In this document: positions 9,944-43,644 of the stretch, piece after piece | How the letters are laid out: every line of letters begins with the position of its first letter | How positions within the stretch are numbered: position 1 is the first letter of the stretch | Source of the DNA: a bacterium | GTDB lineage: Bacteria > Elusimicrobiota > Elusimicrobia > Elusimicrobiales > UBA9959 | Reading direction: 5' to 3' | Assembly: GCA_021811405.1 (NCBI GenBank) | Contig: JAJZOZ010000001.1 | Span: forward strand, 5,103-69,102 | Length of the DNA stretch: 64,000 nt | The notes under the pieces: generated by a model | The model's input: the letters and a program-made list of their open reading frames with translations, nothing else | The model's database searches: none | What the model was told of the DNA's origin: nothing | Position numbers and translations under genes: made by a program

Positions 9944-10116
9944 GTCCCCACTGCCGGAGATCCCCCCCGGTCCTTATCTGCGGCGGTCCCGCTGCCGTTC
10001 CGCCGCGGCTTTTGAAGGCCGCGCGCGGGTATCATCGCGGGAACGGCATAGCTGACATGGCCGCGAACCGCCGGTTCCCATTGGCAGGGGTTGCGGCCAT
10101 TTGGCATAATAACACG

Positions 10117-19381: not shown

Positions 19382-20428
19382 ATGCGGTCCATCGTGCTGT
19401 CTTTGGCGGTTATGGGCGGTCTCTTCGCGGTGTACGGGACGCCGGCGGCGGCCGCCGCCGAAGCGAAAGAAATAGTCTTCCCGGCTCCGCCCGACGTGCC
19501 GCGCATAAAATATCTCAGAAGCCTCGCGCGGGAATCCGATATTTCCGGCCGGAAATCCGGCATGTGGGGCAAGTTCCTCAACGCCATCACCGGCAAGGAG
19601 GCGTCCAACATCTTCATGACCAGGCCGTACGACGTCTGCGCCGACACCGGCAGCGTCTACGTCTCGGACAGCGAGGGCGGGGCCGTGGTGGCGTTCAACC
19701 TGCAGAGCGGGAAAGCCTACAAGATCGGCGGCACGCTGGAGGGGAGGCTGGTCTCCCCGATGGGAGTGGCGCTGGATTCCTCGGGCAGGCTTTTCGTGGC
19801 GGATTCGGCCGGGGACACGATAAAGGTCTTTTCAGTGAACGGAGATTTTCTTTTTCGCTTCGGCCTTTCCGGCTCCGGGCCCGGGCAGTTGAAAAAGCCG
19901 CTGGACGTGACCTATGACCGCGGGCGCGACAGGATACTGGTGGCGGACAGCGGCAACGCGCGGATACAGATTTTCGACACCGCCGGAAAGTTCATAGCCC
20001 AGATAGGGAGCCGCGGGACCGCCGACGGCCAGTTCTCCATTCCGGTCGGGGTGGCCGTGGCCCCGGACGGGCGGGTGATCGTCTCTGATACCATGCTCTG
20101 CCGGGTGCAGGAATTCTCACCTGACGGGAAGTTCCTCCTGAAGTTCGGCGAGCAGGGGGACAGCCTGGGCTACTTCGCCCGGCCCAAGGGAGTGGCCACG
20201 GACAGCGACGGGAACATCTACGTGGCGGACGCGCTTTTCAGCGCGATACAGATCTTCGATCCGAAGGGCGAGCTGCTGATGCATTTCGGGGCCGAGGGCG
20301 GCGAGCCCGGCGCTTTCCAGCTGCCCATCGGCGTCTACGTGGACGACCAGGACAAGGTCTATATCGCCGATTCTTTCAACCAGCGCGTCCAGGTCTTCCA
20401 GTACCTGAAGCAGCCTAAAGCGCCTTAG
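19382..20428 (+). CDS. Exported NHL-repeat six-bladed beta-propeller protein (paralog 1 of 4)
   Basis: RBS AAAGGAG and a signal peptide. Repeated NHL-type units (P.GVA.D..G.I.V.D..N.R.Q.F). Conserved N-terminal VFPAPPDVPRIKYL and C-terminal QRVQVFQYLK. Confidence 0.85.
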   Translation: MRSIVLSLAVMGGLFAVYGTPAAAAAEAKEIVFPAPPDVPRIKYLRSLARESDISGRKSGMWGKFLNAITGKEASNIFMTRPYDVCADTGSVYVSDSEGGAVVAFNLQSGKAYKIGGTLEGRLVSPMGVALDSSGRLFVADSAGDTIKVFSVNGDFLFRFGLSGSGPGQLKKPLDVTYDRGRDRILVADSGNARIQIFDTAGKFIAQIGSRGTADGQFSIPVGVAVAPDGRVIVSDTMLCRVQEFSPDGKFLLKFGEQGDSLGYFARPKGVATDSDGNIYVADALFSAIQIFDPKGELLMHFGAEGGEPGAFQLPIGVYVDDQDKVYIADSFNQRVQVFQYLKQPKAP

Positions 20429-20538: not shown

Positions 20539-21102
20539 GTGAAAACCAAGGTCATACTTCTTTTCATGTCGGTGACGCTGCTGCTGGCTTATTTCGCGCA
20601 TAGACGCGGGAAGCCGGTGACGGTCCCTTCCGACCTGCGCGATTCCGTGATAACCGTTCATGGCTCTTCCGGGGTTCCCGGTTTGGCGCCGCAGTGCCTG
20701 TCCGGCGGCCTTCCGCACAGGGCCGCGGCCGCCGCCGCCTGGGACGGCGGCGGAGCGCTCGCCGCCGGCGTTCAGTCTTCCCCGATGGCGCAGGGAGTAT
20801 ATTCCTGCCTGTCCTGCCATGACGGCACGGTGGCGCCGGCGGATAAGTCGTATTCGGCCGCGCTCGGCTTTTCCGGCGGCGCGCCGGAGGGCGGCTCCGC
20901 CGGAAATCACCCGGTGGGCGTGGATTACGGGGAGGCCATGCGCGCCCGCCCAGGCGAGTACAATGACCCGCATTCCAACCCGGATATCAGGCTTTCCGGG
21001 AACAAGGTCACGTGTCTTTCCTGCCATGCCAGCGAACTGACGGCCGGCCTGCAAATGCCCGGCGGCCAGACCGCTCTTTGTCTCTCCTGTCACAGGCTTT
21101 GA
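20539..21102 (+). CDS. Small c-type cytochrome, 3 CXXCH, divergent member of the tetrahaem family with a degenerate first haem site
   Basis: GTG start preceded by GGAGGAG. TM/signal segment VILLFMSVTLLLAYFA. The motif CLSCH occurs three times, and GNHPVGVDY is present. The position of the first motif reads CLSGGLPH. Confidence 0.7.
   Translation: MKTKVILLFMSVTLLLAYFAHRRGKPVTVPSDLRDSVITVHGSSGVPGLAPQCLSGGLPHRAAAAAAWDGGGALAAGVQSSPMAQGVYSCLSCHDGTVAPADKSYSAALGFSGGAPEGGSAGNHPVGVDYGEAMRARPGEYNDPHSNPDIRLSGNKVTCLSCHASELTAGLQMPGGQTALCLSCHRL
20994..21102 (+). repeat. Direct repeat copy A (3' end of the trihaem cytochrome gene)
   Basis: About 90% identical by eye to 28422-28530, with a perfect 59-nt core (21016-21074 = 28444-28502). 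Confidence 0.9.
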
Positions 21103-21450
21103 GCGCGCTTACCGCCTGCTCCGGCTTTTTGCCGGACCGGCCGGAAGATCGCGTGCCTTTTACCGGGCGTTCACTGATCGATGGATACGCTGAGGGCTTG
21201 TTTTCTGGCGTCCGCTTCATTGCCTGTTCCGCGGATCGCGGAGTCCGCCCGCGGCGGACGCCGCCCCTTGCCCGCATACCGCGTGTATGCCCGCTCATCG
21301 CGGCTTGTTCCCGGACAGCGCCGCTGAGCGCCACCCACAGCCGTCTCCGGCCTATGGCCGTGCCAGGAGCTATGCCCGTCGAACAGCCAAATCCGGGCCG
21401 CCATAAGTCATATTGCTTATGCGCGGGCCGGTTAATGAGGAAATACTGTT

Positions 21451-22512
21451 ATGCGTAATCCACCCGCCAGACCCGTCCAGCGTAGTTTATGGAGCGCGTT
21501 CGCCGCCAAATGCGCCATTGCCCTTTTCGCCGGCAGTTTGGCGGGGCCGATCGCCGCGCATGGCCAGGACATCGTCTTTCCGCCGGCTCCGGATGCTCCG
21601 CGCGTGCGCTATCTGTACAGCCTCAGCGGGCCGCAGGACATCAAGCCGAAAGTGTCCGGGTTCAGGGCTTTTCTGCTGAAGCTTGCCGGTAAAGGCCCGC
21701 GGTCCGGCCAGGCCATGGTGCGGCCTTACGGCGTGTACGCCGCCTCCGGCCGCGTCTTTGTAGCCGATACCGGCGGCATGGCCGTGGCGGTGTTCGACCG
21801 CGGCGCAAAACGGCTGACGAGGATCGGCGGTTCGCGGGAGGGCAGCCTTATCAATCCGATCGATGTTGCAGCCGATGAGGCCGGCAATATCTACGTTACG
21901 GATTCCGGGCTGAATCTGGTCAAGGTTTACGGGCCGGACGGGAACTTCCTGAGGCAACTGGGCACGGCTTCGGGACTGTCGCATCCCACGGGCATCGTTT
22001 ACGACGCCGGCCGCAAACGGCTGATCGTCGCCGATACGGGGAACTCCCGCCTGGTCCTGTTCGACGCGGGCGGGAAAATGTCGGGGACTATAGGCCGCCG
22101 GGGAACGGAAAAGGGGGACATGTCGGTGCCGATAAATCTGGCGCTGGACAGGGAAGGCGATATCTATGTCGTGGAGAACATGCTCAGCCGCGTCCAGATA
22201 TATTCTCCGGAGGGGGTTTTTCTTTCGCAGTTCGGCAAAAACGGCGACCTGCCGGGCTATTTCGCCAGGCCAAGAGGCATAGCCCTTGACAGCGACGGCA
22301 ATATTTATGTCGTTGACGCCTTGATGAATATGGTGCAGATTTTCGACCGGGAAGGGAAACTGCTGCTGTTCTTCGGAGGCGGCGGCGCGGAGCCGGGCAC
22401 GTTCCAGCTGCCTGCCGGAATTTTCATAGATCCGGAGGACCGTATTTATGTGGTGGATTCCAACAATAGGCGTGTCCAGGTTTTCCAGTATCTGAAGCCG
22501 CCTCCGAAATAG
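21451..22512 (+). CDS. Exported NHL-repeat beta-propeller protein (paralog 2 of 4)
   Basis: Signal peptide. IVFPPAPDAPRVRYL. NHL units. C-terminal RRVQVFQYLKPPPK. Confidence 0.85.
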   Translation: MRNPPARPVQRSLWSAFAAKCAIALFAGSLAGPIAAHGQDIVFPPAPDAPRVRYLYSLSGPQDIKPKVSGFRAFLLKLAGKGPRSGQAMVRPYGVYAASGRVFVADTGGMAVAVFDRGAKRLTRIGGSREGSLINPIDVAADEAGNIYVTDSGLNLVKVYGPDGNFLRQLGTASGLSHPTGIVYDAGRKRLIVADTGNSRLVLFDAGGKMSGTIGRRGTEKGDMSVPINLALDREGDIYVVENMLSRVQIYSPEGVFLSQFGKNGDLPGYFARPRGIALDSDGNIYVVDALMNMVQIFDREGKLLLFFGGGGAEPGTFQLPAGIFIDPEDRIYVVDSNNRRVQVFQYLKPPPK

Positions 22513-22625
22513 GGCTTGCGGCAGAAAACCGTTTGTGCGGGATTTCCCCCGGTCTGCGTGAAATCACCCGGATTTGCGGCGGCCGGAACAGCGGTTTCCA
22601 TTGGGAAAGGCGCGTTGCGGGGTGT

Positions 22626-22641
22626 TGGCAGAAACGCTGCA
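22626..22641 (+). promoter_or_regulatory. Candidate sigma-54 (-24/-12) promoter
   Basis: TGGCAGAAACGCTGCA has correct GG/GC register. It lies 88 nt upstream of ATG 22730. The palindrome CTTGACATGTCAAG (22661-22674) lies in the presumed 5' UTR. Confidence 0.65.
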
Positions 22642-22729
22642 CTAAGGATATATGGCGGGGCTTGACATGTCAAGTGCCGCGGCCGCGGCGGGGAAAATGC
22701 GCGGGGGACAGAGGAAACGGGGAGGCGTT

Positions 22730-23365
22730 ATGAAGAAACATGAATCCGTGTGGGCGGGCATGCTTATAGCGTGTGCCCTTGTTCTGCCGGCGCGGCCGGC
22801 GCGCGCAGTGGTTGCGGGTTCCCTGCACGACTTCACCGCGGCCCCGTATTCGCTGCTCACCACCTGTTCGGGCTGCCACGTGCCGCACCAGACCAAGACG
22901 AATGTCCCGTTATGGGCGCACGCGACATCCACGTATACCTACACATTGTATAACCAGAACGCGGCGTATGTCGTGAAAAGCCCCGCCTTCACTTACGATG
23001 CGTCCCCGAGCGCCCTCACGGGCAGCAAATCGCTGTTATGCCTGGGCTGCCATGACGGTACGGTGGCGGTATCCGGCACGAACTATATCACGCAGGCCTC
23101 GGCCTCCTGGATACTTTATGACGCCGGAGCGAAGGTGGGCGGCCAGGCGAGCGCCAATCCGTCGGCCGGCCTGAAAGGCAGCCATCCTATCGGTGTCGTC
23201 TACCAGGCGGTGGCGGGGAAATATAATGATATCTCGCTCGACCCCGATGTGAAGCTGGACAGCACCAAGGTCCAATGCACTTCGTGCCACAACCCGCACA
23301 ACCTGTTCCCCAAGATGCTGGTGAAATCAGGCGCCGCGCTCTGCACCACCTGCCATATAAAGTAA
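22730..23365 (+). CDS. Tetrahaem c-type cytochrome (211 aa), cassette A
   Basis: Start at ATG 22730 (RBS GGGGAGG, signal MKKHESVWAGMLIACALVLPARPARA). Motifs CSGCHVPH, CLGCHDG, CTSCHNPH and CTTCHIK, plus NVPLWAH and GSHPIGVVY. Confidence 0.85.
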   Translation: MKKHESVWAGMLIACALVLPARPARAVVAGSLHDFTAAPYSLLTTCSGCHVPHQTKTNVPLWAHATSTYTYTLYNQNAAYVVKSPAFTYDASPSALTGSKSLLCLGCHDGTVAVSGTNYITQASASWILYDAGAKVGGQASANPSAGLKGSHPIGVVYQAVAGKYNDISLDPDVKLDSTKVQCTSCHNPHNLFPKMLVKSGAALCTTCHIK

Positions 23366-23437
23366 CGCGCGGCAGGAACGGCCCGCCGGGGTTTTTAAGC
23401 ACGGGGGCCGCTGTTTCCGGGAATCCAGGATGATAAA

Positions 23438-24490
23438 ATGCGCTGGAAAACGGCCGGCATCAGTCTGAAAACGCTGAAGTTTCCAGCCATGCTGCTGGCT
23501 ATAGCGTTCACGGCAGCCGCCGCGGCGTCCGTTGGCGGGCGTGTCTGGCCCCCGGCCCCGGATAAGGCGCGGATCCGGCTGATAGCCGTGCTTCCCGAAG
23601 CGGCGCAGGAGGACAATGCCGGGCCGCTTTTTCTGAAAATTTTACGCCGCCTGGCCGGCCTGAAGCCGGGCAAGCGCCGCGGTCCGGGGTTTGTGCGCCC
23701 CACAGGCGTGGCCGTGCGCGGCCGCGTCGTCTATGCCGCAGACCCGGGAGCCGGAGGCGTTGTCATCTATGACACCGAAAAACGTTCCTGCAGCCTGATT
23801 CCGGCCAACCGCCGCAACCGCCTGCCTTCTCCGGTAGGAGTGGCGGCGGCTTCCGACGGGAGCATATTCGTCAGCGATTCCCGGCTGCGGAAAGTTCTTC
23901 TGTTCGACGCCGGAGGCCGCGCCAGCGGCGAACTTAAACCCCCGCCGGGCGCTTTCATGCGGCCGGGTGGTCTGGCTCTGGACGAGGCCCGCGGCCGGCT
24001 GTGGGTGGCCGACGCTGCGGCGCATATGATCTACGCCTATTCTCTCGGCGGAGAATACCTGTTTTCCATCGGCGCGCGGGGCCAGGCGCCCGGCAGTTTC
24101 AATTATCCCACCTATCTCTGGGCCGATACGCGCACAGGAGCCCTGTGGGTCTGCGACTCCGGCAACTTCCGCGTCCAGTCCCTTGACGCCGCCGGGCGGC
24201 CGACAGGGGCTCTGGGGCGCAACGGCAACTGCCCCGGTTATCTGGCGCGGCCGCGCGGCGTGGCCGCAGATTCCGAAGGCCACGTCTATGTGGCGGACGG
24301 CGCGATGTCCGCCGTGCAGATATTTGACGAGAGCGGGCGGTTATTGCTGTATTTCGGAGAGCGGGGCGGCCAACCGGGCGAGTTCTATCTGCCGGGGGGG
24401 GTGTTCATTGACGGCGACGACAGGATATATGTCGCCGATACCTATAACGCCAGGGTGCAGGTATTCCAGTACCTGAAGGACGCGCCATGA
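23438..24490 (+). CDS. Exported NHL-repeat beta-propeller protein (paralog 3 of 4), cassette A
   Basis: Signal peptide. VWPPAPDKARIRLI. NHL units. C-terminal ARVQVFQYLKDAP. ATGA overlap with the next gene. Confidence 0.85.
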   Translation: MRWKTAGISLKTLKFPAMLLAIAFTAAAAASVGGRVWPPAPDKARIRLIAVLPEAAQEDNAGPLFLKILRRLAGLKPGKRRGPGFVRPTGVAVRGRVVYAADPGAGGVVIYDTEKRSCSLIPANRRNRLPSPVGVAAASDGSIFVSDSRLRKVLLFDAGGRASGELKPPPGAFMRPGGLALDEARGRLWVADAAAHMIYAYSLGGEYLFSIGARGQAPGSFNYPTYLWADTRTGALWVCDSGNFRVQSLDAAGRPTGALGRNGNCPGYLARPRGVAADSEGHVYVADGAMSAVQIFDESGRLLLYFGERGGQPGEFYLPGGVFIDGDDRIYVADTYNARVQVFQYLKDAP

Positions 24491-26367
24491 AGAAAATGTC
24501 CGCCGCTGCCGCCTCCGCCGCGCCGGCCGCCATTTCGCTGCTTCTGGCCGGCGCGCTGTTCCCGCCTCCGGCGCGCGCGCTTGTCGTCGCCGGTTCTAAA
24601 CACGATCTCTCTCCCGGTTCGGGCACGTCCCAGACCTGCATATTCTGCCACACGGCCCACCAGGCCAAGCGGAACGTCCCGCTGTGGAATCATTACGTGA
24701 CCACCCAGACCTTCACCTTCTACTCCTCCAACCATCTCAACACCTACCTCGCCATCGCCGCCCCGACCATGGCCGACCTCCCCGGAACTCGCACGGAGCT
24801 GTGCCTGTCCTGCCATGACGGGATGACGGCCCTCGGAGGCCTCTACAATCTGGGCGGGGAAACCATTTCAAAACCCCCGGCCGTTACGGGCCCCGCCAAC
24901 CTGGGCACTAACCTCGCCGACGACCACCCGGTGCTTTACGACGTCAAGCCCGGCGCGGGTCCGCCCGGCTCGCCCGGCACCGACCCCGAGATACAACTGC
25001 CGCTTGCCGGCGACGCGGTCAAGGTCTACGGCGCCGCCAACAGGGTGGAGTGCACTTCCTGCCATGACCCGCATGATAACCAGTTCGGCCATTTCCTGGT
25101 CAAATCCAACGCCAACGCGGCCATCTGCACGACATGTCACATAAAATCCGGCTTTTCCGCCTCCGCGCACGCGACTTCCGTCGTGGCCTATACTCCGCCA
25201 GGCGAAGCGGCGACCACCGTCGGCGAGTGGTCATGCCGGAACTGCCACCGTTCCCACGGGGCGTCCGCGACGCAGGCCTACATCCTGCGCGGAGCCGAGG
25301 AGGCCACCTGCTACCAGTGCCACGGCAATCCTCCCCTGGCCGGCGCCAGGAATATGCAGGCGCTCTTTCTCAAAGCCTCCAGACACCCGACGGAAACGGT
25401 CTCGGCCAGGCATAAGGACCCGGAGACGGACGGCTCCAATTTCACGTATTCGCCGCTCAACAACAGGCATGCGGAATGCCAGGACTGCCATAATCCGCAC
25501 CAGGCCAAGACCGGCACCCATACCGCGCCCGCCAATAACATCTCGAACGTACTGCTGGGCCAGTGGGGCGTGGAACCCTCTGACGGCGCGATCTGGACCG
25601 CGGCCATCGCCTATGTCCGCCAGGTCTTCGCTAACACGACAGGCTACAAGGAGTACCAACTCTGTCTCAAGTGCCACTCCTACTACGCCTTCGGCGCCAT
25701 ACCCGCTCCCAATATCACGGACCAGACCGTCGAGTTCAATATCAATAACAAGGCCGCTCATCCTGTCCGCGCGGGTCTCAGCGGCCAGACCGGGAGCGTT
25801 GCTCCGAAGGCTTTGACGGCCGGCCAGATGTCGGCGCCGTGGACGACCGCCGGCACCCAGACGATGTACTGCTCGGACTGCCACGATTCTGACGTCGCTG
25901 CCGATCCCAAGGGTCCGCATGGCTCGGCCGGAACGTGGCTCAAGAAAGGCCCCAACGTCTACTGGCCCAGGGACGCCGCTCTGGCGCTGTATACGCTGGG
26001 CGCCAACAACACTACCGACGCGCATCTGGCGGGACTTTTCTGCCGCAACTGCCATCCTTTGAGAAGCGCGACAGCAAATACCTGGTACAACAACGCCCAC
26101 CAGGAGCACAGTGGGGCGCAGGTAAGCAATGTCCCCTGCGTGGCCTGCCATGTGGTGGTCCCGCACGGCTCGCGCCGCGGGCGGCTCATCGGCTACGCGG
26201 CTGAAAGCGCCCCCTACAACAACAACGGCGCGGGAACCCTTGAAAAACTCGTGCTGAGCGGCTTTAAGAAAGCGACGACCCCCGTAGGATACGTCACGGG
26301 AAACTGTTACTCCACCGTCGCGGGATGCAGTTCGGTGCATACGAACGCGGGTGGCTATGATCCCTGA
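24487..26367 (+). CDS. 11-haem c-type cytochrome (626 aa), cassette A
   Basis: Signal peptide. 11 CXXCH motifs: CIFCH, CLSCH, CTSCH, CTTCH, CRNCH, CYQCH, CQDCH, CLKCH, CSDCH, CRNCH and CVACH. The first ~215 aa are homologous to the small tetrahaem proteins. Confidence 0.9.
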   Translation: MKKMSAAAASAAPAAISLLLAGALFPPPARALVVAGSKHDLSPGSGTSQTCIFCHTAHQAKRNVPLWNHYVTTQTFTFYSSNHLNTYLAIAAPTMADLPGTRTELCLSCHDGMTALGGLYNLGGETISKPPAVTGPANLGTNLADDHPVLYDVKPGAGPPGSPGTDPEIQLPLAGDAVKVYGAANRVECTSCHDPHDNQFGHFLVKSNANAAICTTCHIKSGFSASAHATSVVAYTPPGEAATTVGEWSCRNCHRSHGASATQAYILRGAEEATCYQCHGNPPLAGARNMQALFLKASRHPTETVSARHKDPETDGSNFTYSPLNNRHAECQDCHNPHQAKTGTHTAPANNISNVLLGQWGVEPSDGAIWTAAIAYVRQVFANTTGYKEYQLCLKCHSYYAFGAIPAPNITDQTVEFNINNKAAHPVRAGLSGQTGSVAPKALTAGQMSAPWTTAGTQTMYCSDCHDSDVAADPKGPHGSAGTWLKKGPNVYWPRDAALALYTLGANNTTDAHLAGLFCRNCHPLRSATANTWYNNAHQEHSGAQVSNVPCVACHVVVPHGSRRGRLIGYAAESAPYNNNGAGTLEKLVLSGFKKATTPVGYVTGNCYSTVAGCSSVHTNAGGYDP

Positions 26368-26434
26368 ATCCCGCCGTTGCGCCGGGAGAAGGTGATGCCG
26401 GCCGGAATGGTTCCCGGGTTGGGAGGGCGAACTC

Positions 26435-28108
26435 ATGCGCCGCCATACCAGCTGTCTGCTCTGCGTTTTCTGGCTGCTGAAGGCGGCCGTACCCGCAGCG
26501 CGAGCGCAATCCCCGTACGCAGCGTCCGGCCGGCTCGGCTGGTCCTATGACGACGTCATGGTCCGGACCCCGGAGGGAAGCAGGCGCATCGCGATAGCCG
26601 GCCAGAAGTACAATCTGAACCTCCGGGGACCGTTCGGCCTGCCGGGGATCGGCGAAGGCTTCGCCACGCTCGACTATTCTGAAGGGAGGAACCTCTCGCA
26701 GGTCGTCGCAGGCGGGGGCGCCGCCCAGAAGCTGGTCGGGTATTCTATCGGCGGCAGCTTCCTCCCGCCGGAGGCGCGCGAATTCGTGTCGCTTGGCGGG
26801 ACGTTCGCGCGGAATTCCGACCGCACGGCCTGGGGCGCGGGTCCGCCCAGGAATCTCACGGACACGAGCTATGACGGCAATATCGGCCTGACGCTGCCCG
26901 GGCTGCCGAGCCTGCAGCTGAGCTGTCAGAACCTTCAGCGCCGCGACAGCGCCGAAGGCGCGCCGGCCAGCCAGGATATCATAACGTGGCGGGAGCGCGC
27001 GTCGTACGCCAAGGGCCCTCTGCGCTGGAATTACTTCCGCACCCGGCAGGATACAAGAGCCCTCGGTCCGGGAGTCCGGAGTTCCGGCAACGACGACCTT
27101 TCCACCGACCTGTCCCTGGACTATCCCGCTCTGCGCGTGCGCGGCCTGCGAAGCCTGGCCCTGCGCGCCTCGTTTACCCGCCAGGCGTTCGACAGCGCCG
27201 GGAACCGGAGGACGCAGCAGTCTATCGGCGAGAGCGGCTATCTCACCACGGCGCTTTCGCGCAGCGGACGGTTCGAGTCATATCTCGGCTACGGCGAGAG
27301 CTTTTCCCGCATCGCCGGGGAAAAAAGCCTGCGCTCCAGCCATAACCTGAGCCTGGTCAGCCAGTCGGTTTCGTCGCGCTGGAATGTGAACAACCAGGCC
27401 AAGTACTCCGCGGCCTCCGGCCCCGGCGTAAGCGGCCAGAGTCTCGACGAGAATTTCAACGCGGAGTCGCCGAGGTTCGGCAAATACTTCGTCTACTATC
27501 TGCAGAGCGCCGGCAGCGTCCGCTGGGGGGGATCCGGCGGAGGGACGGCCGGAGAATCGGCGTTGCAAAAACTCTCCTTCTATCCCCGCCCGGAACTGGA
27601 TGTCTACTGCCAGCAGAGCTACTCGGGTTCGGGCGCCAGGCTTGGCCGGGCGCGCGAGGACAGCCTCGGCTGGGCCGCGGGCGTCAATTGGCGGCCCGGC
27701 AGCCTTCTGGAAACCGCCGCCGACTACAGTCGGCAACGCGGCCGCGGTCTTCTTACTGACCAGCTGACGTTAAGTTATAAAGCCTTTCCGCTGGACAGTA
27801 TGACCATAGGATGCGGTTATTCCCTGCAGCGTACCCGGACTTACCGGCCGCTGCCGATGGAATCCGTGTACGGCACATTCAAAGCCGACCTTGGATATCG
27901 CCCGGCCGAGGGCCTCTCGCTGGACGCCAGCCTCCTGCGGCAACGGTTTGCCGGGGAGAATCCGGGCCGGCCAGGCGCCATGGATTATTCCCTGTCGGCG
28001 CTATACCAGCTGGGCGCAGTCGAAATGAGCGTTAAATACGAAAACCGCGCGATTTCAACGGTCAACGAATACAGCCGTCTGGCAGCGGAGTTCAGCCGGA
28101 ATTTTTAG
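26435..28108 (+). CDS. Large outer-membrane beta-barrel protein (557 aa), cassette A; putative porin partner of the cytochromes
   Basis: RBS GGGAGGG. Signal peptide ending AARAQ. Ser/Gly/Tyr/Arg-rich alternating beta-strand pattern throughout. C-terminal AAEFSRNF (terminal Phe). Paralog of 38586-40289. Confidence 0.7.
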   Translation: MRRHTSCLLCVFWLLKAAVPAARAQSPYAASGRLGWSYDDVMVRTPEGSRRIAIAGQKYNLNLRGPFGLPGIGEGFATLDYSEGRNLSQVVAGGGAAQKLVGYSIGGSFLPPEAREFVSLGGTFARNSDRTAWGAGPPRNLTDTSYDGNIGLTLPGLPSLQLSCQNLQRRDSAEGAPASQDIITWRERASYAKGPLRWNYFRTRQDTRALGPGVRSSGNDDLSTDLSLDYPALRVRGLRSLALRASFTRQAFDSAGNRRTQQSIGESGYLTTALSRSGRFESYLGYGESFSRIAGEKSLRSSHNLSLVSQSVSSRWNVNNQAKYSAASGPGVSGQSLDENFNAESPRFGKYFVYYLQSAGSVRWGGSGGGTAGESALQKLSFYPRPELDVYCQQSYSGSGARLGRAREDSLGWAAGVNWRPGSLLETAADYSRQRGRGLLTDQLTLSYKAFPLDSMTIGCGYSLQRTRTYRPLPMESVYGTFKADLGYRPAEGLSLDASLLRQRFAGENPGRPGAMDYSLSALYQLGAVEMSVKYENRAISTVNEYSRLAAEFSRNF

Positions 28109-28421
28109 CCCCCATGTTCTATAAGCGCGCCGGCGCCGATTTGTGTTTTACCGCCTTCGGCGCGCTGTCCGGGTATGCCTGAAAAACCGGCGCCCCCTCT
28201 TCCAAGGCCATAAGCCTTTAACGAGGTGAAAACGCAAATATTAAAATTAGTATATTCATCATTTTACCGCCGGCTATTCTTTCGGCGATCCGTTCCCCTG
28301 AACAGTTCCCGTACCGCAGCTCTTCCTGAATTTGCCCGCGGTTCTATTACAACTTCACGGTCAGGCTTAAAATATGGATCTTGCCCGGGTCGCCTATCTT
28401 GCTGGCGAAAAGGCGTAGTTG

Positions 28422-28530
28422 TTCCGGCGACAAGGTGACCTGCCTTTCCTGCCATGCCAGCGAACTGACGGCCGGCCTGCAAATGCCCGGCGGCCAGACC
28501 GCCCTCTGCCTCGCCTGCCACAGGCTGTGA
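28422..28530 (+). pseudogene. Orphan 3' fragment of a cytochrome gene (direct repeat copy B)
   Basis: Encodes ..GDKVTCLSCHASELTAGLQMPGGQTALCLACHRL*, nearly identical to the C-terminus of the 20539-21102 product. The frame is closed by TGA at 28327. There is no signal peptide and no ATG or RBS. An AT-rich patch lies upstream. Confidence 0.75.
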
Positions 28531-28563: not shown

Positions 28564-29841
28564 TCAGCGCTCCCCGCCCCGGTCCAGCCCGAACAAGGTC
28601 CTGACAGCGCTTATCTTCGCCAGCGTCTCCTCGTCCGTACCGTTCCCGCCGTTCTTGAGGCCGGTGATGGGAGCGTGCAGGATCCTGCCGAGGACCCGCC
28701 TGGTGACCACGTCCAGCAGCTCGCGGTCCCGCTCCCCGAAGCGGCCGGCGTGCTTCTCCACCTCGCTGCGGCGGATCTCCTCGAAGAGCTCCGTCAGCTC
28801 CCTGATCGTGGGACCGGCGGCGAGGGAGAGGTGCCAGCGGGTGAACGCGGCGAGCTCCTCCTCTACGATAGTCCTCACCTTGGCGGCTTCGCGCGTCCGC
28901 TTGTCCAGGTTCTGGTCCACGATGCGCTGGAGGGCGTCGATATCGTGAAGGAAAACGTTGCCGACCTCGTCCGCGAGCGGGTCGATATTGCGGGGGACCC
29001 CGATGTCGATAAGGAAGAGCGGGCCGCGGTCGCGCTCGCGTTCCCCCATGGCCCGGCGTACGTCCTCCGCCCTGAGAACGTAGTCCGGCGCGGAGACCGA
29101 GCTGATGACGATGTCGGCCCGGCGCAGGTGGGTGTGAAGGGCGTCGAAGTCCACCGCCGTGCCCCCCAGCTTCCCCGCGACCTCCTCCGCCTTGCCGCGC
29201 GTGCGGTTGGTTATCAGCAGGTCCCGGACGCCCCTGCCGGCGAGGTGCCTGCCGGTCAGTTCGCCCGTTTCCCCGGCCCCTATGAGAAGGACGCGTTTCT
29301 GGTCCAGGCGCTCGAAGATCTTAGCGGCCAGCTCGGCGGCGGCGAAGCTGACGGAGACGGCGCCCTCGCCTATCCCGGTCTCAGCGCGGCTGCGCTTCCC
29401 GACGTGGAACGCCGTCTGGAAGAGCCGGTTCAGGAGCAGCCCGCTGGTGGAAAGCTCCGCGGCGAGGGAGAAGGCGTCCTTCACCTGCCCCAGGATCTGC
29501 ACGTCGCCCAGGACCATGGAGTCCAGGCCGGAGGCCAGCTCGAAGAGATGCTTCGCCGCCTCGCCGGAGCGGAGGGCGTAGAAATGCCCCGGGCGGGCCG
29601 CCTGCCGCGCCCCCTTGAAGTCCACCAGGAAATCCCGCAGCCGCTCCGGCCGCGGCTCGCCGGACGGGGAGACGGCGTAGGCCTCGGTCCTGTTGCAGGT
29701 GGAGACCAGGACGCATTCGCTGAACGCGCCGCTGCGCAGCGCGGGCAGCGCCTCCCGGAGCTCCTCGCGCGAGAAGCAGAGCTTCTCGCGGACGTCTACG
29801 GGAGCGGTCCTGTGGTTGAGTCCGACGCAGAGAAGGTCCAT
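28564..29841 (-). CDS. hemA: Glutamyl-tRNA reductase
   Basis: MDLLCVGLNHRTAPVDVREK. The motifs STCNRTE and GAGETGEL (NADPH site). Length 425 aa. Confidence 0.9.
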   Translation of the reverse strand: MDLLCVGLNHRTAPVDVREKLCFSREELREALPALRSGAFSECVLVSTCNRTEAYAVSPSGEPRPERLRDFLVDFKGARQAARPGHFYALRSGEAAKHLFELASGLDSMVLGDVQILGQVKDAFSLAAELSTSGLLLNRLFQTAFHVGKRSRAETGIGEGAVSVSFAAAELAAKIFERLDQKRVLLIGAGETGELTGRHLAGRGVRDLLITNRTRGKAEEVAGKLGGTAVDFDALHTHLRRADIVISSVSAPDYVLRAEDVRRAMGERERDRGPLFLIDIGVPRNIDPLADEVGNVFLHDIDALQRIVDQNLDKRTREAAKVRTIVEEELAAFTRWHLSLAAGPTIRELTELFEEIRRSEVEKHAGRFGERDRELLDVVTRRVLGRILHAPITGLKNGGNGTDEETLAKISAVRTLFGLDRGGER

Positions 29842-29862: not shown

Positions 29863-30687
29863 TCAGCTGAAATTGTGGAAGCCGCGGAAAAAGAGATTTA
29901 TGACGGTCATGGAGAGCAGGGCCAGGGCGAACCCCAGGATGGACAGGACGGCGAACTTCTTGCCGTACCAGCCCGCCGCCTCCCTCAGCCCGAGGCCGGC
30001 GCCGTACACCAGCCAGATGAGCGCGGTGCCGATGAGCTTCGGGTCCACGTAGGAATGCCCCGGGAACGCCCTGGCCAGCCACGCCATGCCGACCGCTATC
30101 GCCACGGTCAGGAAGAAAAAGCCCGTCGCCGTCGAGATGAAGCTCAGCCTTTCGAGTACCTCCAGGCTGGGCAGGCGCTCGTAGACGACGCCGAGCCGGC
30201 TGGACTTTATCTCGTGATAGAGCATCAGGTAGAGGAAGCCGTAGACGGCCGCGATCGCGAGCGCCGCGTAGCCGAGCAGCGCGCCGGAAACGTGTATCCC
30301 GAGAAGCCGGCTCTTCAGGACTGGATCCACGTCGGTCCTGTTCACGATCAGCAGCGAGGAGGCGAGCTGGAAGAGCAGCGGGAGACCGAGGATGAAACAG
30401 CCGGTGCCCTTCACCTTGGTCCAGTACTCCAGCAGGAAGTACGCGAGCGAAATGCTGAAGGCGATGACCGAGAGTATCTCCGGAAGGCTGGTGATGGGCG
30501 GGTGTCCCAGAAAGACCGTCCGGGCGAGCAGATAAGTGAGATGGACGGAAAGCGCGGCGATAAGCAGCGGCGTCTTGGCGGTCTTCGCGACGGGGCTCGC
30601 GCTGAAGAACGCCCTGGCGTACGCCGCTACTGTTGCCAGGTAAAGGAGCGGCAGCAGAGCGTTCAACGCGGTTATTGCATGGTTCAT
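29863..30687 (-). CDS. Cytochrome c assembly (CcsA/HemX-like) integral membrane protein
   Basis: About 8 predicted TM segments immediately upstream of hemA, as in hemA-hemX arrangements. The start at ATG 30687 is supported by the promoter at 30731-30759, so the track start at 30759 is rejected. Confidence 0.6.
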   Translation of the reverse strand: MNHAITALNALLPLLYLATVAAYARAFFSASPVAKTAKTPLLIAALSVHLTYLLARTVFLGHPPITSLPEILSVIAFSISLAYFLLEYWTKVKGTGCFILGLPLLFQLASSLLIVNRTDVDPVLKSRLLGIHVSGALLGYAALAIAAVYGFLYLMLYHEIKSSRLGVVYERLPSLEVLERLSFISTATGFFFLTVAIAVGMAWLARAFPGHSYVDPKLIGTALIWLVYGAGLGLREAAGWYGKKFAVLSILGFALALLSMTVINLFFRGFHNFS

Positions 30688-31232: not shown

Positions 31233-31892
31233 ATGAAAAAGGCGAAAATCGCGGGTCTGCTGATAGCGATCTGCGCGATAACCACCGGTGTACAGCCGCT
31301 TCATGCTGCCATTGCCGGTTCAAAGCACGACTTCCGCCAGACCGGCGGTGGTTTTCCGATAACCGGCGTCACCGAGATGTGCGTGACCTGCCATGTGCCG
31401 CACAGGCCTCTGGTCAATGTTCCCCTGTGGAATCACTCGATCAGCTCGTATACCTACACGCTCTACAACCAGAACGCCGAGTACGCTTCCGGCAACAGCG
31501 CGGCTTACGACGCTTCCCCCAGCGGCCTGCAGAACTCCAAGTCCAGGCTGTGCATGTCCTGCCATGACGGTTCCGTCGCCGTGGCCAGCTCGGTGAAGAT
31601 ACAGAGCGCTTCCAACAACTGGATCCTCTGGGACAACGGCGCGGCCGTGGCCAACGGCTCCGGCACCGGCAACACCGGCATGAAGGGCTCCCACCCCGTG
31701 GCCGTCAACTACGCCACCGTGCAGACCGCCAACCCCACTGATTACGTGGCGGCCGCCAGCCTCGTGGACGTGAAACTCGACGCCGGCAAAGTGCAGTGCA
31801 CCACCTGCCACAACCCGCACAACAAGTACAACAAGATGCTCGTGGCGGACAACGCCGGCAGCGCGCTGTGCCTTAAGTGCCACATAAAGTAA
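31233..31892 (+). CDS. Tetrahaem c-type cytochrome (219 aa), cassette B
   Basis: RBS GGAGGAG. Signal MKKAKIAGLLIAICAITTGVQPLHA. GSKHDF. Motifs CVTCHVPH, CMSCHDG, CTTCHNPH and CLKCHIK. NVPLWNH. GSHPVAVNY. Confidence 0.9.
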   Translation: MKKAKIAGLLIAICAITTGVQPLHAAIAGSKHDFRQTGGGFPITGVTEMCVTCHVPHRPLVNVPLWNHSISSYTYTLYNQNAEYASGNSAAYDASPSGLQNSKSRLCMSCHDGSVAVASSVKIQSASNNWILWDNGAAVANGSGTGNTGMKGSHPVAVNYATVQTANPTDYVAAASLVDVKLDAGKVQCTTCHNPHNKYNKMLVADNAGSALCLKCHIK

Positions 31893-31980
31893 AGGGTATA
31901 GCGGGTCCCCTGAGGGCCTGACAGTACATAAGACGCCGGGCGCCACACACGCCCCCGGCGGCTTATTGAAGGGGGCGATG

Positions 31981-32008
31981 TTTACGCGGGAGGACGAAAA
32001 GGTATAAT
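31981..32008 (+). promoter_or_regulatory. Possible internal sigma-70-type promoter
   Basis: TTTACG-N16-TATAAT, 46 nt upstream of ATG 32055. The -35 box is weak. Confidence 0.35.
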
Positions 32009-32054
32009 TTATCCGGGTTTTTTCCGGCCGGATGTCCGGAGCCCGCTGATCAGG

Positions 32055-33077
32055 ATGAAAAAACTGCTGCTCTGTCTTCTTCTTGTCCCGCTTGCCATCG
32101 GCCCGGCCGCGGCCGGGGAGAAGCCGGTCTGGCCGGCTCCGCCGGACAAGCCGCGTATAGAGTATCTGGAAACCCTGACGGCCGGCAAGAGGGCGGACGG
32201 AAAGCGCGGGAAATTCGGGAAAATGCTGGATTTCCTGCTGGGCGTGGTGTCGGGCGGCCGCTCCGAGCAGGAGTTCTTGCGGCCTACCGGCATATGGGTC
32301 ACCGAGAACGCGGTTTTCGTCGCGGATCCGGGCGTCGGCCGCGTCATGGTGCGCGACAAGGCTTCCGGGAAGTCCCGTTGGGTGCCGTCCGCCAGGCGGC
32401 ACAGGATGCCGTTCCCGGTGGGCGTGGCGGTAGCGCCGGACGGCAGGCTTTTCGTAAGCGATCCGGAGCTGGGAGGGGTTTCGGTCTTTGATCCGGAAGG
32501 AAAGCCCCTTCCCGGGCTGGCGGCGCCTCCGCAGGGGTTCCAGCGCCCTACCGGCCTGGCCCTGGACGCGAAGCTCTCGCGGCTCTACGTGTCCGACACC
32601 GGCACGCATTCCGTTTCCGCCTACGGCCTGGATGGCCGCTATCTTTTCACTTTCGGAGGCCGGGGCGGCGGCGCCGGGGAGCTGAACTACCCCACCTATC
32701 TCTGGGCCGACTCCGGCACCGGGAGGGTGCTGGTCTGTGATTCCGGGAATTTCCGGGTCAGGATATTCGACCCGGAGGGCAAGCCCGCCGGAGGTTTCGG
32801 GGAGATGGGCGACAGGCCCGGGTATCTGGCCAGGCCCAGAGGCATAGCCGCCGATTCTGACGGCGACGTCTATTCGGTCGACGGGGCGCTGGAGGCGGTG
32901 CAGATCTTCGACGAAAAGGGCCGGCTGCTGCTGTACTTCGGGGAGAGCGGCGGCGCGCCGGGTTATTTCTCGATGCCGGGAGGGATATTCGTGGACGGAC
33001 AGGACAGGATATACGTGGCGGATTCGTTCAACTCCCGGGTGCAGGTTTTCCAGTACCTCAAGGCGGACGCACGATGA
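32055..33077 (+). CDS. Exported NHL-repeat beta-propeller protein (paralog 4 of 4), cassette B
   Basis: Signal MKKLLLCLLLVPLAIGPAAA. VWPAPPDKPRIEYL. NHL units. C-terminal SRVQVFQYLKADAR. ATGA overlap with the next gene. Confidence 0.85.
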   Translation: MKKLLLCLLLVPLAIGPAAAGEKPVWPAPPDKPRIEYLETLTAGKRADGKRGKFGKMLDFLLGVVSGGRSEQEFLRPTGIWVTENAVFVADPGVGRVMVRDKASGKSRWVPSARRHRMPFPVGVAVAPDGRLFVSDPELGGVSVFDPEGKPLPGLAAPPQGFQRPTGLALDAKLSRLYVSDTGTHSVSAYGLDGRYLFTFGGRGGGAGELNYPTYLWADSGTGRVLVCDSGNFRVRIFDPEGKPAGGFGEMGDRPGYLARPRGIAADSDGDVYSVDGALEAVQIFDEKGRLLLYFGESGGAPGYFSMPGGIFVDGQDRIYVADSFNSRVQVFQYLKADAR

Positions 33078-34981
33078 GCGCGCTTTCCAGGACCATACTT
33101 TTCCCGGCGGCCTTGCTGGCCTTCGCCGCGGCCCCGTGCCGCGCAGCCTCCATAGTGAACTCCAAGCACGACATGTCCTCGCTGTCGGCCACCACCGGGC
33201 CCAAGTCGCTCTCCACCAGCGAGCGCTGCGTTTTCTGCCATACTCCGCACAGGGCCGGCGTGAACGTGCCGCTCTGGAACCAGTCGGTCACCACCCAGAC
33301 CTTCACTTTCTATTCCTCCAACTACGTCAACACCTACCTGGGCATGGCCGTCCCGACCATGGCGAAGCTGGCCGGCTCCCGCACCAAGCTCTGCCTCTCC
33401 TGCCACGACGGCATGACCGCGCCCGGCAGCGTGTTCAATCTGGGCGGGACCGGCGGCCGGCTGAACATGAGCGGTCCGCTGGGCTCCGCTTCCACCCTCG
33501 GCGTGAACCTGGCCGACGACCACCCGGTCCTTTACGGCGTAAACCCGGGCGCGGGTCCCCCGGTCCAGCCGGGGACCGACCCCGAGATACAGCTGCCGCC
33601 CGCCGGGGACAAGGTAAAGGTGTACGGCGCGGAGAACCTGGTGGAATGCACCTCCTGCCATAACCCGCACGATAACCAATACGGCCATTTCCTGGTCAAG
33701 TCCAACGCCAACGGCGCGCTCTGCACCACCTGCCATTACAAGACCGGCTTCTCCGCCAGCGCGCATAAGCTGTCGGCCGTCTCCTATACTCCGCCCGGGG
33801 AGAGCCCCACCACCGTGGGCGAGTGGGCCTGCCGCGACTGCCACCGTTCGCACGGGGCGTCCTCGGTGCAGGCTTACCTGCTGAGCGGCGCGGAAGAGGC
33901 CACTTGTTACGCCTGCCACGGCAATCCGCCGCTTACCGGGGCCAGGAACCTGAAACTTACCGTAGGCAAAGCCTACAAGCACCCGGTTGAGACCGTCTCC
34001 GGCAGGCACAAGGACCCGGAGACGGATGGCGCCAATTTTACGTATTCGCCGCTCAACAACAGGCATGCGGAATGCCAGGACTGCCATAATCCGCATCAGG
34101 CCAAGTCCGGCACGCATGTCGCCCCGACCAACGTCATTTCCAGCGTCCTGCTGGGCCAGTGGGGCGTGGAACCGGCCTACGGCACGGCCAGCTGGACGCA
34201 GCCCACCAGCTATTCCAGGAAGGTATTCGCCGACACGCTGAACTACAGGGAATACCAGCTCTGTCTCAAATGCCATTCCTCGTACGCGTTCGGGACTACG
34301 CCCCCGCCCGGAATAACGGACCAGTCGATAGAACTGAGCATAAATAACCGCGGCGCCCATCCGGTGATACGGGGGCTTAACAGCCAGACCGGCAGCACCA
34401 GCCCCAAGCCGCTGGCGGCCAACCAGCTTTCCAGCCCCTGGTCCGCCGCGCGCGGAACGCAGACCATGTACTGCTCGGACTGCCACGGCCCGGACAGCAC
34501 AACGGATCCCAAGGGTCCGCACGGTTCCGCCGGAGAACACATCTTGTCCGGGCCGAACGTCTACTGGCCCAGGAAACCCGGGGGGGCGCTCTACACTCTG
34601 GACGACTTCCCCGGGGGGAACAACTCCGGCGCCAACACCTCGGCTGGCCTGTTCTGCCTGAACTGCCACCCGATGTACTCCGGAACCAGTTTCTTCAACA
34701 ACGTCCACATGGAGCATAATCAGAAGAATCAGGGCGTTACTCATGCCTGCGTCGGCTGCCATCAGGTGATCCCGCACGGCTCAAAACGCTCCCGGCTTAT
34801 AGGCTATGCCTCCGACCAGGCGCCTTACAACTATAACGGGACGGGGGCGTTCGATAAGCTGGTCCTGTCCGGGTTCAAGAAGGCGACCAGCCCTACCGGT
34901 TATGTGAAAACGAACTGCTACGCTCCTGTTTCCGGTTGCAGCAGCGAGCACGGGATCAACTCGGGCGGATATGATCCATGA
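33074..34981 (+). CDS. 11-haem c-type cytochrome (635 aa), cassette B
   Basis: Motifs CVFCH, CLSCH, CTSCH, CTTCH, CRDCH, CYACH, CQDCH, CLKCH, CSDCH, CLNCH and CVGCH. Collinear with 24487-26367. Confidence 0.9.
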   Translation: MSALSRTILFPAALLAFAAAPCRAASIVNSKHDMSSLSATTGPKSLSTSERCVFCHTPHRAGVNVPLWNQSVTTQTFTFYSSNYVNTYLGMAVPTMAKLAGSRTKLCLSCHDGMTAPGSVFNLGGTGGRLNMSGPLGSASTLGVNLADDHPVLYGVNPGAGPPVQPGTDPEIQLPPAGDKVKVYGAENLVECTSCHNPHDNQYGHFLVKSNANGALCTTCHYKTGFSASAHKLSAVSYTPPGESPTTVGEWACRDCHRSHGASSVQAYLLSGAEEATCYACHGNPPLTGARNLKLTVGKAYKHPVETVSGRHKDPETDGANFTYSPLNNRHAECQDCHNPHQAKSGTHVAPTNVISSVLLGQWGVEPAYGTASWTQPTSYSRKVFADTLNYREYQLCLKCHSSYAFGTTPPPGITDQSIELSINNRGAHPVIRGLNSQTGSTSPKPLAANQLSSPWSAARGTQTMYCSDCHGPDSTTDPKGPHGSAGEHILSGPNVYWPRKPGGALYTLDDFPGGNNSGANTSAGLFCLNCHPMYSGTSFFNNVHMEHNQKNQGVTHACVGCHQVIPHGSKRSRLIGYASDQAPYNYNGTGAFDKLVLSGFKKATSPTGYVKTNCYAPVSGCSSEHGINSGGYDP

Positions 34982-36273
34982 GAAAGCTGCTGGTCTCGCC
35001 CCGCACGGCGCTGGCGCTGATGGGGGCGATAGCGGCGGCCTGCTGCGCGGCTTCCTTCGTGCCGCAGATAGCCGACAGCAGCCCGGCCGTTATCGGGGCT
35101 TGGAGGAGTGCCAGCCCGCTGACTTACCGGCTGGCCGGGGTCCTGCGGCTTGACAGGATATATACTTCTCCATGGTTCCTGCTGCTGGTAGCCGCGGCCG
35201 GCGTGGTGCTTGCCTATTCGGTCCGGCTGCAGTTCCGCGGCTGCCTTTCCGGCCTGGCCGGGAGCGGCGCGCCGGCGGTCCAGTTCCCGGGCCAGGGGCG
35301 CTTGTCCGCGGCGCTGTCAGCCAGAGGGTATTCCATGCTTCCGGCATCGGCAGGAGAGGCCCGTTTCGCGGCCAACAGGCCTGGTCGGTGGGGCTCGCCT
35401 GTCTTTCATCTCGGGCTGCTGCTGGTGATAGTCGCCGCCTTCCTGACGTTCGCGTTCCAGCAGAGAGGCTTCGTGCAGCTGATAGAGGGCGAGGTCTTCG
35501 ACGGCGCCGCCGCCGATTTCCTTACCGTGAACAATGGGCCGCTGGCCGGCCGCTTTTTGGTGCCGTTCAGCCTGCGCATGAACAAACTGGAGCAGGCATA
35601 CTGGGGGAACGGACAACCCAGGGATTTCGGCAGCCGGGTGGACTTCCTGGAGGAAAGCGGCAGGCCGGCGCCGGCTCTGATCTCGGTAAACAACCCCTTC
35701 CGCCGGCGCGGCGTGACGGTGTACCAGTCGCCCTATTACGGCTACAGCGTGTCGCTGGCGCTGAAAAGACCGGCCGGCGCGGAAACGCTGACGCATTTCC
35801 TGCTGGACAGGGCCGCCGTCCCTTCGAGGCCTGCGGTCGGTGGGGCGGATTTCCCCGGTACGGGCTATCTTTTCTGGCTCGAATTCCTGCCGGACGCGGC
35901 CGGACGGTCGTTCTTCGTGAAGGACCCGGTACTGAAGGCCCGCGTGACGGAAGGCGGCCGCGTGGTCTTCGACGGCCCCGTTCCGATGGACGGCACGGTG
36001 CGGGTCGGAGCGGATTCCCTGCGCGTGGCGGCCGTACGCGGCTGGAGCGGGCTCGTGTTCGTCCGCGACAGGTGGCAGGGGCTGGCGTACGCGGGACTGG
36101 GGCTTTGCGTCCTGGGGGCCGCGCTGATGTTCCTGCTGCCGTATCGCGAGCTGGCCGTGGCGCTTCCGGACGCCGGCGAAGCTGTGGTCCGGGCGGTTTC
36201 GGGCAGGGAGATGGACCTGCTGCGTGAAGAGGCGCGCGACATAGAGGCTGAACTTAAAAAATGGAAGGAATGA
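34978..36273 (+). CDS. ResB/CcsB-like cytochrome c biogenesis protein (System II)
   Basis: Membrane topology of an N-terminal TM pair, a large soluble loop and a C-terminal TM. It sits directly upstream of, and is coupled to, ccsA. The assignment rests mainly on context and architecture. Confidence 0.6.
   Translation: MRKLLVSPRTALALMGAIAAACCAASFVPQIADSSPAVIGAWRSASPLTYRLAGVLRLDRIYTSPWFLLLVAAAGVVLAYSVRLQFRGCLSGLAGSGAPAVQFPGQGRLSAALSARGYSMLPASAGEARFAANRPGRWGSPVFHLGLLLVIVAAFLTFAFQQRGFVQLIEGEVFDGAAADFLTVNNGPLAGRFLVPFSLRMNKLEQAYWGNGQPRDFGSRVDFLEESGRPAPALISVNNPFRRRGVTVYQSPYYGYSVSLALKRPAGAETLTHFLLDRAAVPSRPAVGGADFPGTGYLFWLEFLPDAAGRSFFVKDPVLKARVTEGGRVVFDGPVPMDGTVRVGADSLRVAAVRGWSGLVFVRDRWQGLAYAGLGLCVLGAALMFLLPYRELAVALPDAGEAVVRAVSGREMDLLREEARDIEAELKKWKE

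Positions 36274-42183: not shown

Positions 42184-43644
<1,461 letters not shown>

Follow-up and report, generated by a model that had tools for sequence, protein, structure and literature searches.

An orphan 3' end of a trihaem cytochrome gene within a reshuffled electron-transfer island of an Elusimicrobia genome

Contig JAJZOZ010000001.1 (assembly GCA_021811405.1) carries, in the stretch of 64,000 nucleotides (nt) from position 5,103 to 69,102 that was analyzed here and is called the window below, an intact gene for a trihaem c-type cytochrome (tri-A) whose last 109 nt recur as a direct repeat about 7.4 kb downstream, beyond a block of further multihaem cytochrome genes. An initial annotation, made from the sequence alone, took this repeat for the footprint of a block that had inserted into, or had been duplicated by recombination within, a small cytochrome gene. 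We asked whether the downstream copy, copy B, is such a footprint or whether it has a history of its own. We find that copy B is an orphan 3' stump and that its divergence from tri-A is a mosaic of differing flanks and an identical center. Our preferred reading, to which we assign a probability of about one half, is that copy B is the non-coding relic of a once-complete second trihaem gene, a paralogue of tri-A, whose linker was patched by gene conversion. All positions are those of the window.

Copy B is an orphan 3' end

The elements of the repeat are as follows.

20539-21102, plus strand: tri-A, intact trihaem c-type cytochrome gene of UetD/E/G-like type, 187 amino acids, GTG start, three CXXCH motifs and an N-terminal hydrophobic segment
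20994-21102, plus strand: repeat copy A, the last 35 codons and the stop of tri-A
21016-21074, plus strand: perfect 59-nt core of copy A, coding for the linker that joins haem motifs 2 and 3 and varies across the family
28109-28421, no strand: AT-rich spacer from the stop of putative barrel gene A to the stump
28422-28530, plus strand: repeat copy B, an orphaned pseudogene fragment consisting of the 3' end of a trihaem cytochrome gene
28444-28502, plus strand: perfect 59-nt core of copy B, identical to the core of copy A

An ungapped alignment of the two copies gave 98 identical positions out of 109 (89.9%), which confirms the positions, the identity of about 90% and the perfect 59-nt core of the initial annotation. 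A separate repeat search of the window recovered the same pair as 115 nt at 90% identity, with a spacing of 7,428 nt, and an exact match of 59 nt cannot have arisen by chance in 64 kb. Both copies do end in a stop codon, TGA, as had been described, but homology does not end exactly at that stop, since about 6 nt beyond it are still similar (GCGCGC against GCTCGC) before similarity ceases. Nine of the 11 mismatches fall at third codon positions, and the remaining two exchange asparagine for aspartate and serine for alanine (N to D, S to A). The linker encoded by the core, ASELTAGLQMPGGQ, is the most variable stretch in an alignment of the family, in which it lies between two nearly invariant motifs.

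The reading frame of copy B is open only from 28330, following a stop at 28327; it holds no ATG, just weak in-frame TTG codons, and a hydrophobic N terminus or signal peptide is found in no frame. We built a profile of the trihaem family from ten members and searched it against all six frames of the window. It detected the intact gene (E value of 8e-75), two tetrahaem genes and copy B (E value of 2e-14), the last of these at profile positions 141 to 175 of 175 only, and no trihaem 5' fragment was found anywhere in the 64 kb. Because the match is confined to these positions and no 5' fragment accompanies it, copy B is a true orphan stump. Its description as a gene remnant therefore holds: only the last 35 residues match the family, and a search upstream for an in-frame start with a signal peptide, which would have made copy B an intact gene, found none. 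The 5' boundary at 28422 is abrupt. Nothing upstream of it is significantly similar to the 5' region of tri-A, and the spacer, at 46 to 50% G+C against ~65% elsewhere, resembles nothing else in the window. In annotation, 28422-28530 should be labelled a pseudogene fragment.

Two features of the spacer deserve mention in their own right. At 28222-28250, GAGGTGAAAACG and the codons for MKTQILKL resemble the ribosome-binding site and start of tri-A (GGAGCGGTGAAAACC, MKTKVILL); the resemblance is statistically unsupported, and the segment could be all that remains of a start that the stump once had. As a candidate for a decayed 5' end (GTG AAA ACG, at 28226) this segment was rejected, with a local alignment score of 18 against a shuffle mean of 18.6 and no profile match. 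The plus strand of the spacer also holds two sigma-70-like promoter matches upstream of the stump, at 28218-28247 and 28346-28373 (2 found, 0.2 expected), which may merely be due to AT-richness.

Mosaic divergence between the two copies

For comparison, we added the homologous DNA of L010, L003 and L006, three distant members of the family with proteins ~45 to 58% identical to that of tri-A, to an alignment of the two copies and divided the repeat into flanks, consisting of 22 and 28 nt of haem-motif sequence, and the 59-nt core. In the flanks, copies A and B differ at 11 of 50 sites, nearly as many as separate copy A from the outgroups (12 to 14 of 50) and more than separate copy B from them (8 to 10 of 50). 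In the core, A and B differ at none of 59 sites, while each copy differs from the outgroups at 23 to 26 of 59. Restricted to third codon positions, differences number 9 of 16 in the flanks and 0 of 19 in the core (Fisher P of 1.6e-4), and the permutation probability of a perfect run of 59 given 11 mismatches is ~0.001. At most of the differing sites it is copy B that has the outgroup state, with C-ending consensus codons, and the live tri-A that is derived, mostly by C-to-T changes. Since copy B has kept these consensus codons and 9 of the 11 differences are synonymous, it was probably under coding constraint until recently. The simplest reading of this pattern is that the repeat consists of two long-separated coding sequences that underwent one recent short exchange over the linker.

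The 3' end of tri-A is itself unusual in codon usage. Among its last nine sense codons (21075-21099), five end in T, compared with 17% for the whole gene and 5 to 12% for neighbouring genes, and in each of these cases the coding strand has changed from C to T when copy B and the homologues are taken as the reference. The protein encoded by tri-A is present in exact form in a public collection (P0001), where its cluster has a single member; the nearest homologue in a public protein search is merely 58% identical.

The mosaic bears directly on the explanation first proposed for the repeat. In that model, there was a single tri gene, and a unit of 7,428 nt (20994-28421) was copied by segmental duplication or introduced by Campbell-type insertion, in either case with codon 152 as the left breakpoint. 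Such an event would leave an intact gene, a block and then an orphan 3' end that is sharply bounded on its 5' side, as at 28422, and the identical linker and the derived flank states that A and B share (see below) fit it as well. However, copies that were identical at birth are predicted to diverge evenly, and faster where the sequence is dead, whereas all 11 differences lie in the flanks, 9 of them are synonymous, and it is tri-A that has most of the derived changes, with the consensus codons retained in the dead copy.

The junction is reproduced in independent assemblies

As the contig was assembled from metagenome data and a 59-nt exact repeat is present, the stump might be a chimeric join made at a repeated k-mer. 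We regard this as scarcely credible. An independent MEGAHIT contig from a separate sample (L013) is identical across the barrel gene, the spacer, the stump and hemA; the MEGAHIT k of 141 exceeds the length of the core, and the flanks of copy B are unique. The intact tri-A protein occurs in exact form on 11 long contigs with unchanged neighbours, and the exact HemA protein occurs on 17. Furthermore, Logan contigs assembled at k = 31 from two other runs (L012 and L014) end exactly at 28473, the start of the last 31-mer that still holds a base unique to the right flank of copy B. Breaks at this position are expected if the core truly occurs twice, and the junction is therefore not an assembly artefact. 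The 59-nt repeat is a likely cause of contig breaks, and the contig ends of short-k public assemblies may be used to detect it in other samples.

Cassettes A and B

The genes on either side of the stump form two cassettes, separated by a hemA-hemX pair.

19382-20428, plus strand: NHL1 (Pfam/domain annotation)
21451-22512, plus strand: NHL2, cassette A (Pfam)
22730-23365, plus strand: tetrahaem A, cassette A
23438-24490, plus strand: NHL3, cassette A (Pfam)
24487-26367, plus strand: 11-haem A, cassette A
26435-28108, plus strand: putative barrel A, 557 amino acids, cassette A
21451-28108, plus strand: cassette A as a whole (NHL2, tetrahaem, NHL3, 11-haem, putative barrel)
28564-29841, minus strand: hemA (Pfam), its stop 33 nt from the stop of the stump
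29863-30687, minus strand: hemX/CcsA-like gene (Pfam), paired with hemA
31233-31892, plus strand: tetrahaem B, cassette B
32055-33077, plus strand: NHL-B, cassette B
33074-34981, plus strand: 11-haem B, cassette B
34978-40289, plus strand: ResB, CcsA, radical-SAM/B12 and putative barrel B (567 amino acids), cassette B
31233-40289, plus strand: cassette B as a whole, the canonical module minus its head tri gene

The block bracketed by the repeat thus holds the genes that the initial annotation listed, namely, an NHL gene, a tetrahaem gene, a second NHL gene, an 11-haem gene and a putative barrel gene of 557 codons. Orthologues of cassette A were found on L015, L017 and L018 (barrel, 57 to 58% identity; NHL3, 71%; NHL2, 69%; tetrahaem, 64 to 66%). 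On L015 and L017, cassette B comes first and is followed by a circularly permuted cassette A, in the order NHL3, 11-haem, barrel, NHL2, LysR (in opposite orientation) and tetrahaem (L017, 6910-14314; L015, 1988-9355). The tetrahaem gene is followed in these relatives, without a change of strand, by hemX and a fused hemA-hemC gene. In the window, by contrast with the order on L015 and L017, barrel A is parted from NHL2. Only three homologues of barrel A exceed 50% identity among 5.8 billion protein clusters, and a metagenome scan for closer carriers of the island gave only further short contigs. Neither putative barrel (26435-28108 and 38586-40289) matches a Pfam family.

Three relatives (L003, L006 and L077) define a canonical module, consisting of an optional NHL gene, tri, tetrahaem, a Wzy/TPR gene, NHL, 11-haem, ResB, CcsA, radical SAM and barrel; the NHL gene upstream of tri is seen in L077. 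The gene order of cassette B is shared with L003, L006 and L017. In the relatives with the canonical module, tri directly precedes tetrahaem, whereas in the window, cassette A, the stump and hemA-hemX stand between the two, with the stump 2.7 kb upstream of cassette B. Deleting 21103 to ~31100 from the window would bring NHL1 and tri next to tetrahaem B and the genes that follow it, which is the canonical order. In every cassette-B-type module that we saw (L003, L006 and L017), as in the window, a B12-binding radical-SAM gene (37082-38593) lies between CcsA and the barrel.

Between the 11-haem proteins of the two cassettes, identity is 66%; to the 11-haem protein of L003, it is 67% for A and 73% for B. 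Barrels A and B share 33% identity. By these values, cassettes A and B are old paralogues.

Gene order speaks on both sides of the duplication or insertion model. The position of cassette A directly after tri fits it, excision of 21103 to ~31100 restores the NHL-tri-tetrahaem order of L077, L006 and L003, and the permutation of cassette A relative to L017 would be expected from duplication followed by loss or from a circular intermediate. Against it, the sequence to the right of copy B is not collinear with that to the right of copy A, so a second event just past the stop would be required, and the genes in the block are old paralogues of those in cassette B, with orthologues in permuted order in other metagenome-assembled genomes (MAGs). 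The geometry of the proposed footprint, with its intact gene, its 7.3 kb and its orphan 3' end, thus stands, but the period of 7,428 nt does not look like a discrete unit that left two copies alike from the outset, and we consider this origin of the stump possible but rather unlikely.

hemA-hemX and the stump

The hemA-hemX pair to the right of the stump has different affinities. It is 62 to 70% identical to a pair in two low-G+C MAGs labelled Bacteroidota (L033 and L049), in which hemC, hemD and hemE lie next to it, while identity to the pair of the cassette-sharing Elusimicrobia contig L017 is just 38% and 27%. No hemC, hemD or hemE was found in the 64-kb window. Since these genes follow the pair in the two MAGs and are missing here, the hem operon has been severed directly 3' of hemA, at the stump. 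A hemA-anchored genome scan returned only ordinary hem operons and no further carriers of the island. The pair may have been gained horizontally, as an accessory set of haem-synthesis genes that is now part of the island, and the stump, by the affinities of its neighbours, lies at a joint at which three pieces of different history meet.

The position of the stump 33 nt past the hemA stop, on the opposite strand, suggests that it could have been kept for a function, either as antisense to tri-A mRNA in the 3' untranslated region of hemA or as a silent donor for gene conversion comparable to pilS and pilE. An antisense stump would pair with the 3' end of tri-A mRNA, perfectly over 59 nt, and link haem synthesis to cytochrome output, whereas a donor would swap the variable inter-haem linker with tri-A. 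The sole terminator-like hairpin on the minus strand lies beyond the stump, at 28208-28192, the stump has decayed less than expected of dead sequence, and the identical segment is exactly the variable linker, bordered by conserved motifs. However, the terminator match is weak and at chance level (1 found, 1.5 expected), the stump matches no Rfam family, a single copy identical to the gene in its variable part offers no diversity, and no relative has a conserved counterpart. We therefore hold a retained function to be highly unlikely; the stump is most likely an ordinary non-functional rearrangement scar and not a mobile element.

The island and its surroundings

The region in which both cassettes lie is delimited by comparison with related genomes. 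By its GuaA, the host belongs to the Elusimicrobia (Elusimicrobiales), with relatives at 86 to 93% identity.

9950-40458, no strand: electron-transfer island, ~30.5 kb, between PepC11 (gene at 8512-9894) and guaA, holding both cassettes, the stump and hemA-hemX
40459-41991: guaA, right flank of the island

Four close relatives (L068, L069, L071 and L072; GuaA 87 to 93% identical) lack the island altogether. Their gene order is a PALP enzyme, a GAF histidine kinase, two small genes, Peptidase_C11, zero to four small genes, guaA and guaB; in L072, PepC11 and guaA are 229 nt apart. The corresponding flanking genes of the window are 66 to 85% identical to those of the relatives (PALP, 2223-3455; kinase, 6388-4829; PepC11, 8674-9855; guaB, 42184-43638). 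The unit that varies among the closest genomes is the whole 30.5-kb island, with the 7.3-kb block internal to it, and the region between PepC11 and guaA is a variable hotspot. An empty site for the 7.3-kb block, which the initial annotation had proposed to look for in relatives, was accordingly not found; the four closest genomes lack all of the island instead.

Besides the cassettes, the island contains a sigma-54-like gene, a two-component system and several multihaem cytochrome genes. The regulatory genes form a set at its start, with an open reading frame with a sigma-54 DNA-binding domain (10012-11217; Pfam E value of 6e-8), a HAMP histidine kinase (11219-12676) and an NtrC-type sigma-54-dependent response regulator (12680-14059). 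We looked for gene relics in the intergenic regions of the island, specifically a barrel 3' end before NHL2, an NHL 5' end after barrel A and hemC after hemA, and found none.

Boundaries and content of the island also bear on the idea that the two copies are the attL and attR sites of an integrative element that carried the 3' end of its target gene, in the manner of islands that target tRNA genes or guaA, and integrated into tri. Repeats in direct orientation that cover a gene's 3' end while the gene remains intact, with a few differing bases around an identical core, are what hybrid att sites would look like. Yet Pfam annotation of the block genes showed no recombinase or transposase in the 7.3-kb block, and Pfam together with precomputed domains showed no integrase, recombinase, transposase or excisionase in the whole island. 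The composition of the block is like that of its surroundings, and its genes have chromosomal orthologues beside cassette B in other MAGs. No direct repeats of at least 9 nt occur at the island borders, so that the variable unit has no boundary repeats, and no empty site was found at the borders of the repeat. We judge an integrative element to be very improbable here.

Origin of the stump

The reading that we prefer is one of reshuffled modules, loss of a gene head and a short patch of gene conversion. A second tri gene of the UetD/E/G-like family would once have been complete, most simply as the head gene of module B. Around 450 nt of its 5' end would then have been removed during reshuffling of the island, leaving the stump at the joint of module A (NHL1, tri-A, NHL2, tetrahaem, NHL3, 11-haem and barrel), the detached hemA-hemX pair and module B. 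Recent gene conversion between the two paralogues would have erased their differences over the variable linker, in a patch of at least 59 nt, and the similarity of the haem-motif flanks would be ordinary conservation at the level of the family. We infer both the gene conversion and the origin of the relic from a separate paralogue instead of a partial copy. As a simpler variant, we considered the stump as the head gene of cassette B that had co-diverged with it and had undergone no further event; this was rejected, the linker being 100% identical and the cassette proteins only 33 to 66%.

Several points weigh against the reading of a patched relic. Copies A and B share derived states that set them apart from all three outgroups, namely, Ser-Gly where the outgroups have Ser-Asp, AGG as an arginine codon, TGA as the stop and GC.CGC following it, and these imply that the two are closer than the raw flank counts suggest. 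The flanks amount to only 50 sites, which may have been shaped by saturation or codon bias, and the flanking homology that gene conversion could have used is short. It also takes an extra event to bring hemA-hemX into its position between the stump and tetrahaem B. Moreover, we found no genome that has, where the stump lies, a second tri gene in intact form, the nearest tri homologue being that at 58% identity.

Potential for further recombination

Besides recording past events, the repeat was initially proposed as a substrate for excision or amplification by homologous recombination. In our preferred reading, this would be the only activity that the stump could have. In E. coli, the minimal length for efficient RecA-dependent recombination is roughly 20 to 30 bp. 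Because the perfect 59-nt match exceeds this length, deletion or amplification of the 7.4 kb that include cassette A is plausible, and the repeat possibly causes copy-number variation of cassette A. The predicted deletion product is an intact hybrid tri gene whose sole change is S183A. In the assembled data, however, no deletion variant appears: the hybrid S183A protein is absent among ~15 billion public proteins, and tri adjoins hemA on none of the 17 contigs bearing this hemA. The suggestion thus stands as far as the length of the core is concerned, with no sign of an excised form.

Comparison with known systems

The stump shares features with several kinds of partial gene copy described in bacteria. 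As in attL/attR islands, direct repeats correspond to a gene 3' end, the gene stays intact, and the repeats are imperfect around an identical core; here, however, an integrase is lacking, no empty site for this unit was found, the cargo consists of chromosomal paralogues, and the real island borders lie elsewhere and have no repeats. As at the join points of tandem duplications, including those followed by random loss, a partial gene copy stands at the start of what would be the second unit, the neighbouring cassette is permuted, and the direct repeat could drive further amplification or collapse. The differences are that the second unit ceases to be collinear 6 nt past the stop, with hemA then on the opposite strand, and that the pattern of divergence is unlike that of copies identical at birth.

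In Neisseria, silent, 5'-truncated pilS cassettes act as donors to pilE by gene conversion. The stump is likewise promoterless and truncated, with conserved segments flanking a variable one and signs of a short conversion tract. In contrast, there is one stump only, identical to the gene in its variable part, there is no known recombination-initiating element, and the tri-A product is periplasmic, with no obvious pressure to vary.

Closest in kind are the gene remnants that mark rearrangement and deletion junctions. The stump has no start codon and no detectable function, and it lies at breaks of synteny, between barrel A and NHL2 and between hemA and hemC. It differs from such remnants in being unusually well preserved, with a patch of at least 59 nt identical to a live paralogue, which points to recent gene conversion.

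For the island as a whole, the nearest parallel is the cluster named uet, for undecaheme electron transfer, of Tenderiales and some Gallionella (bioRxiv 10.1101/2022.05.06.490989; PMC10734462). That cluster encodes an 11-haem cytochrome (UetJ), a tetrahaem (UetA), trihaems (UetD/E/G), NHL proteins (UetH/I), a barrel (UetC) and CcsAB. By gene content alone, the island is similar in combining 11-haem, tetrahaem, trihaem and NHL genes, a large putative barrel and CcsA/CcsB, and several trihaem paralogues per cluster are normal in uet. It differs in its occurrence in Elusimicrobia (by GuaA), in its gene order, in an additional radical-SAM gene and in that no PPIase or cupredoxin was seen in it. 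Against this background, the stump may help to trace the evolution of multihaem-cytochrome conduits in an uncultivated lineage of Elusimicrobia, where modules would reshuffle, lose head genes and swap short patches by recombination inside a 30-kb island absent from the closest relatives. The most useful by-product of the analysis is this island itself, a uet-like assemblage of reshuffled paralogous modules in Elusimicrobia that is missing in the closest relatives of its host.

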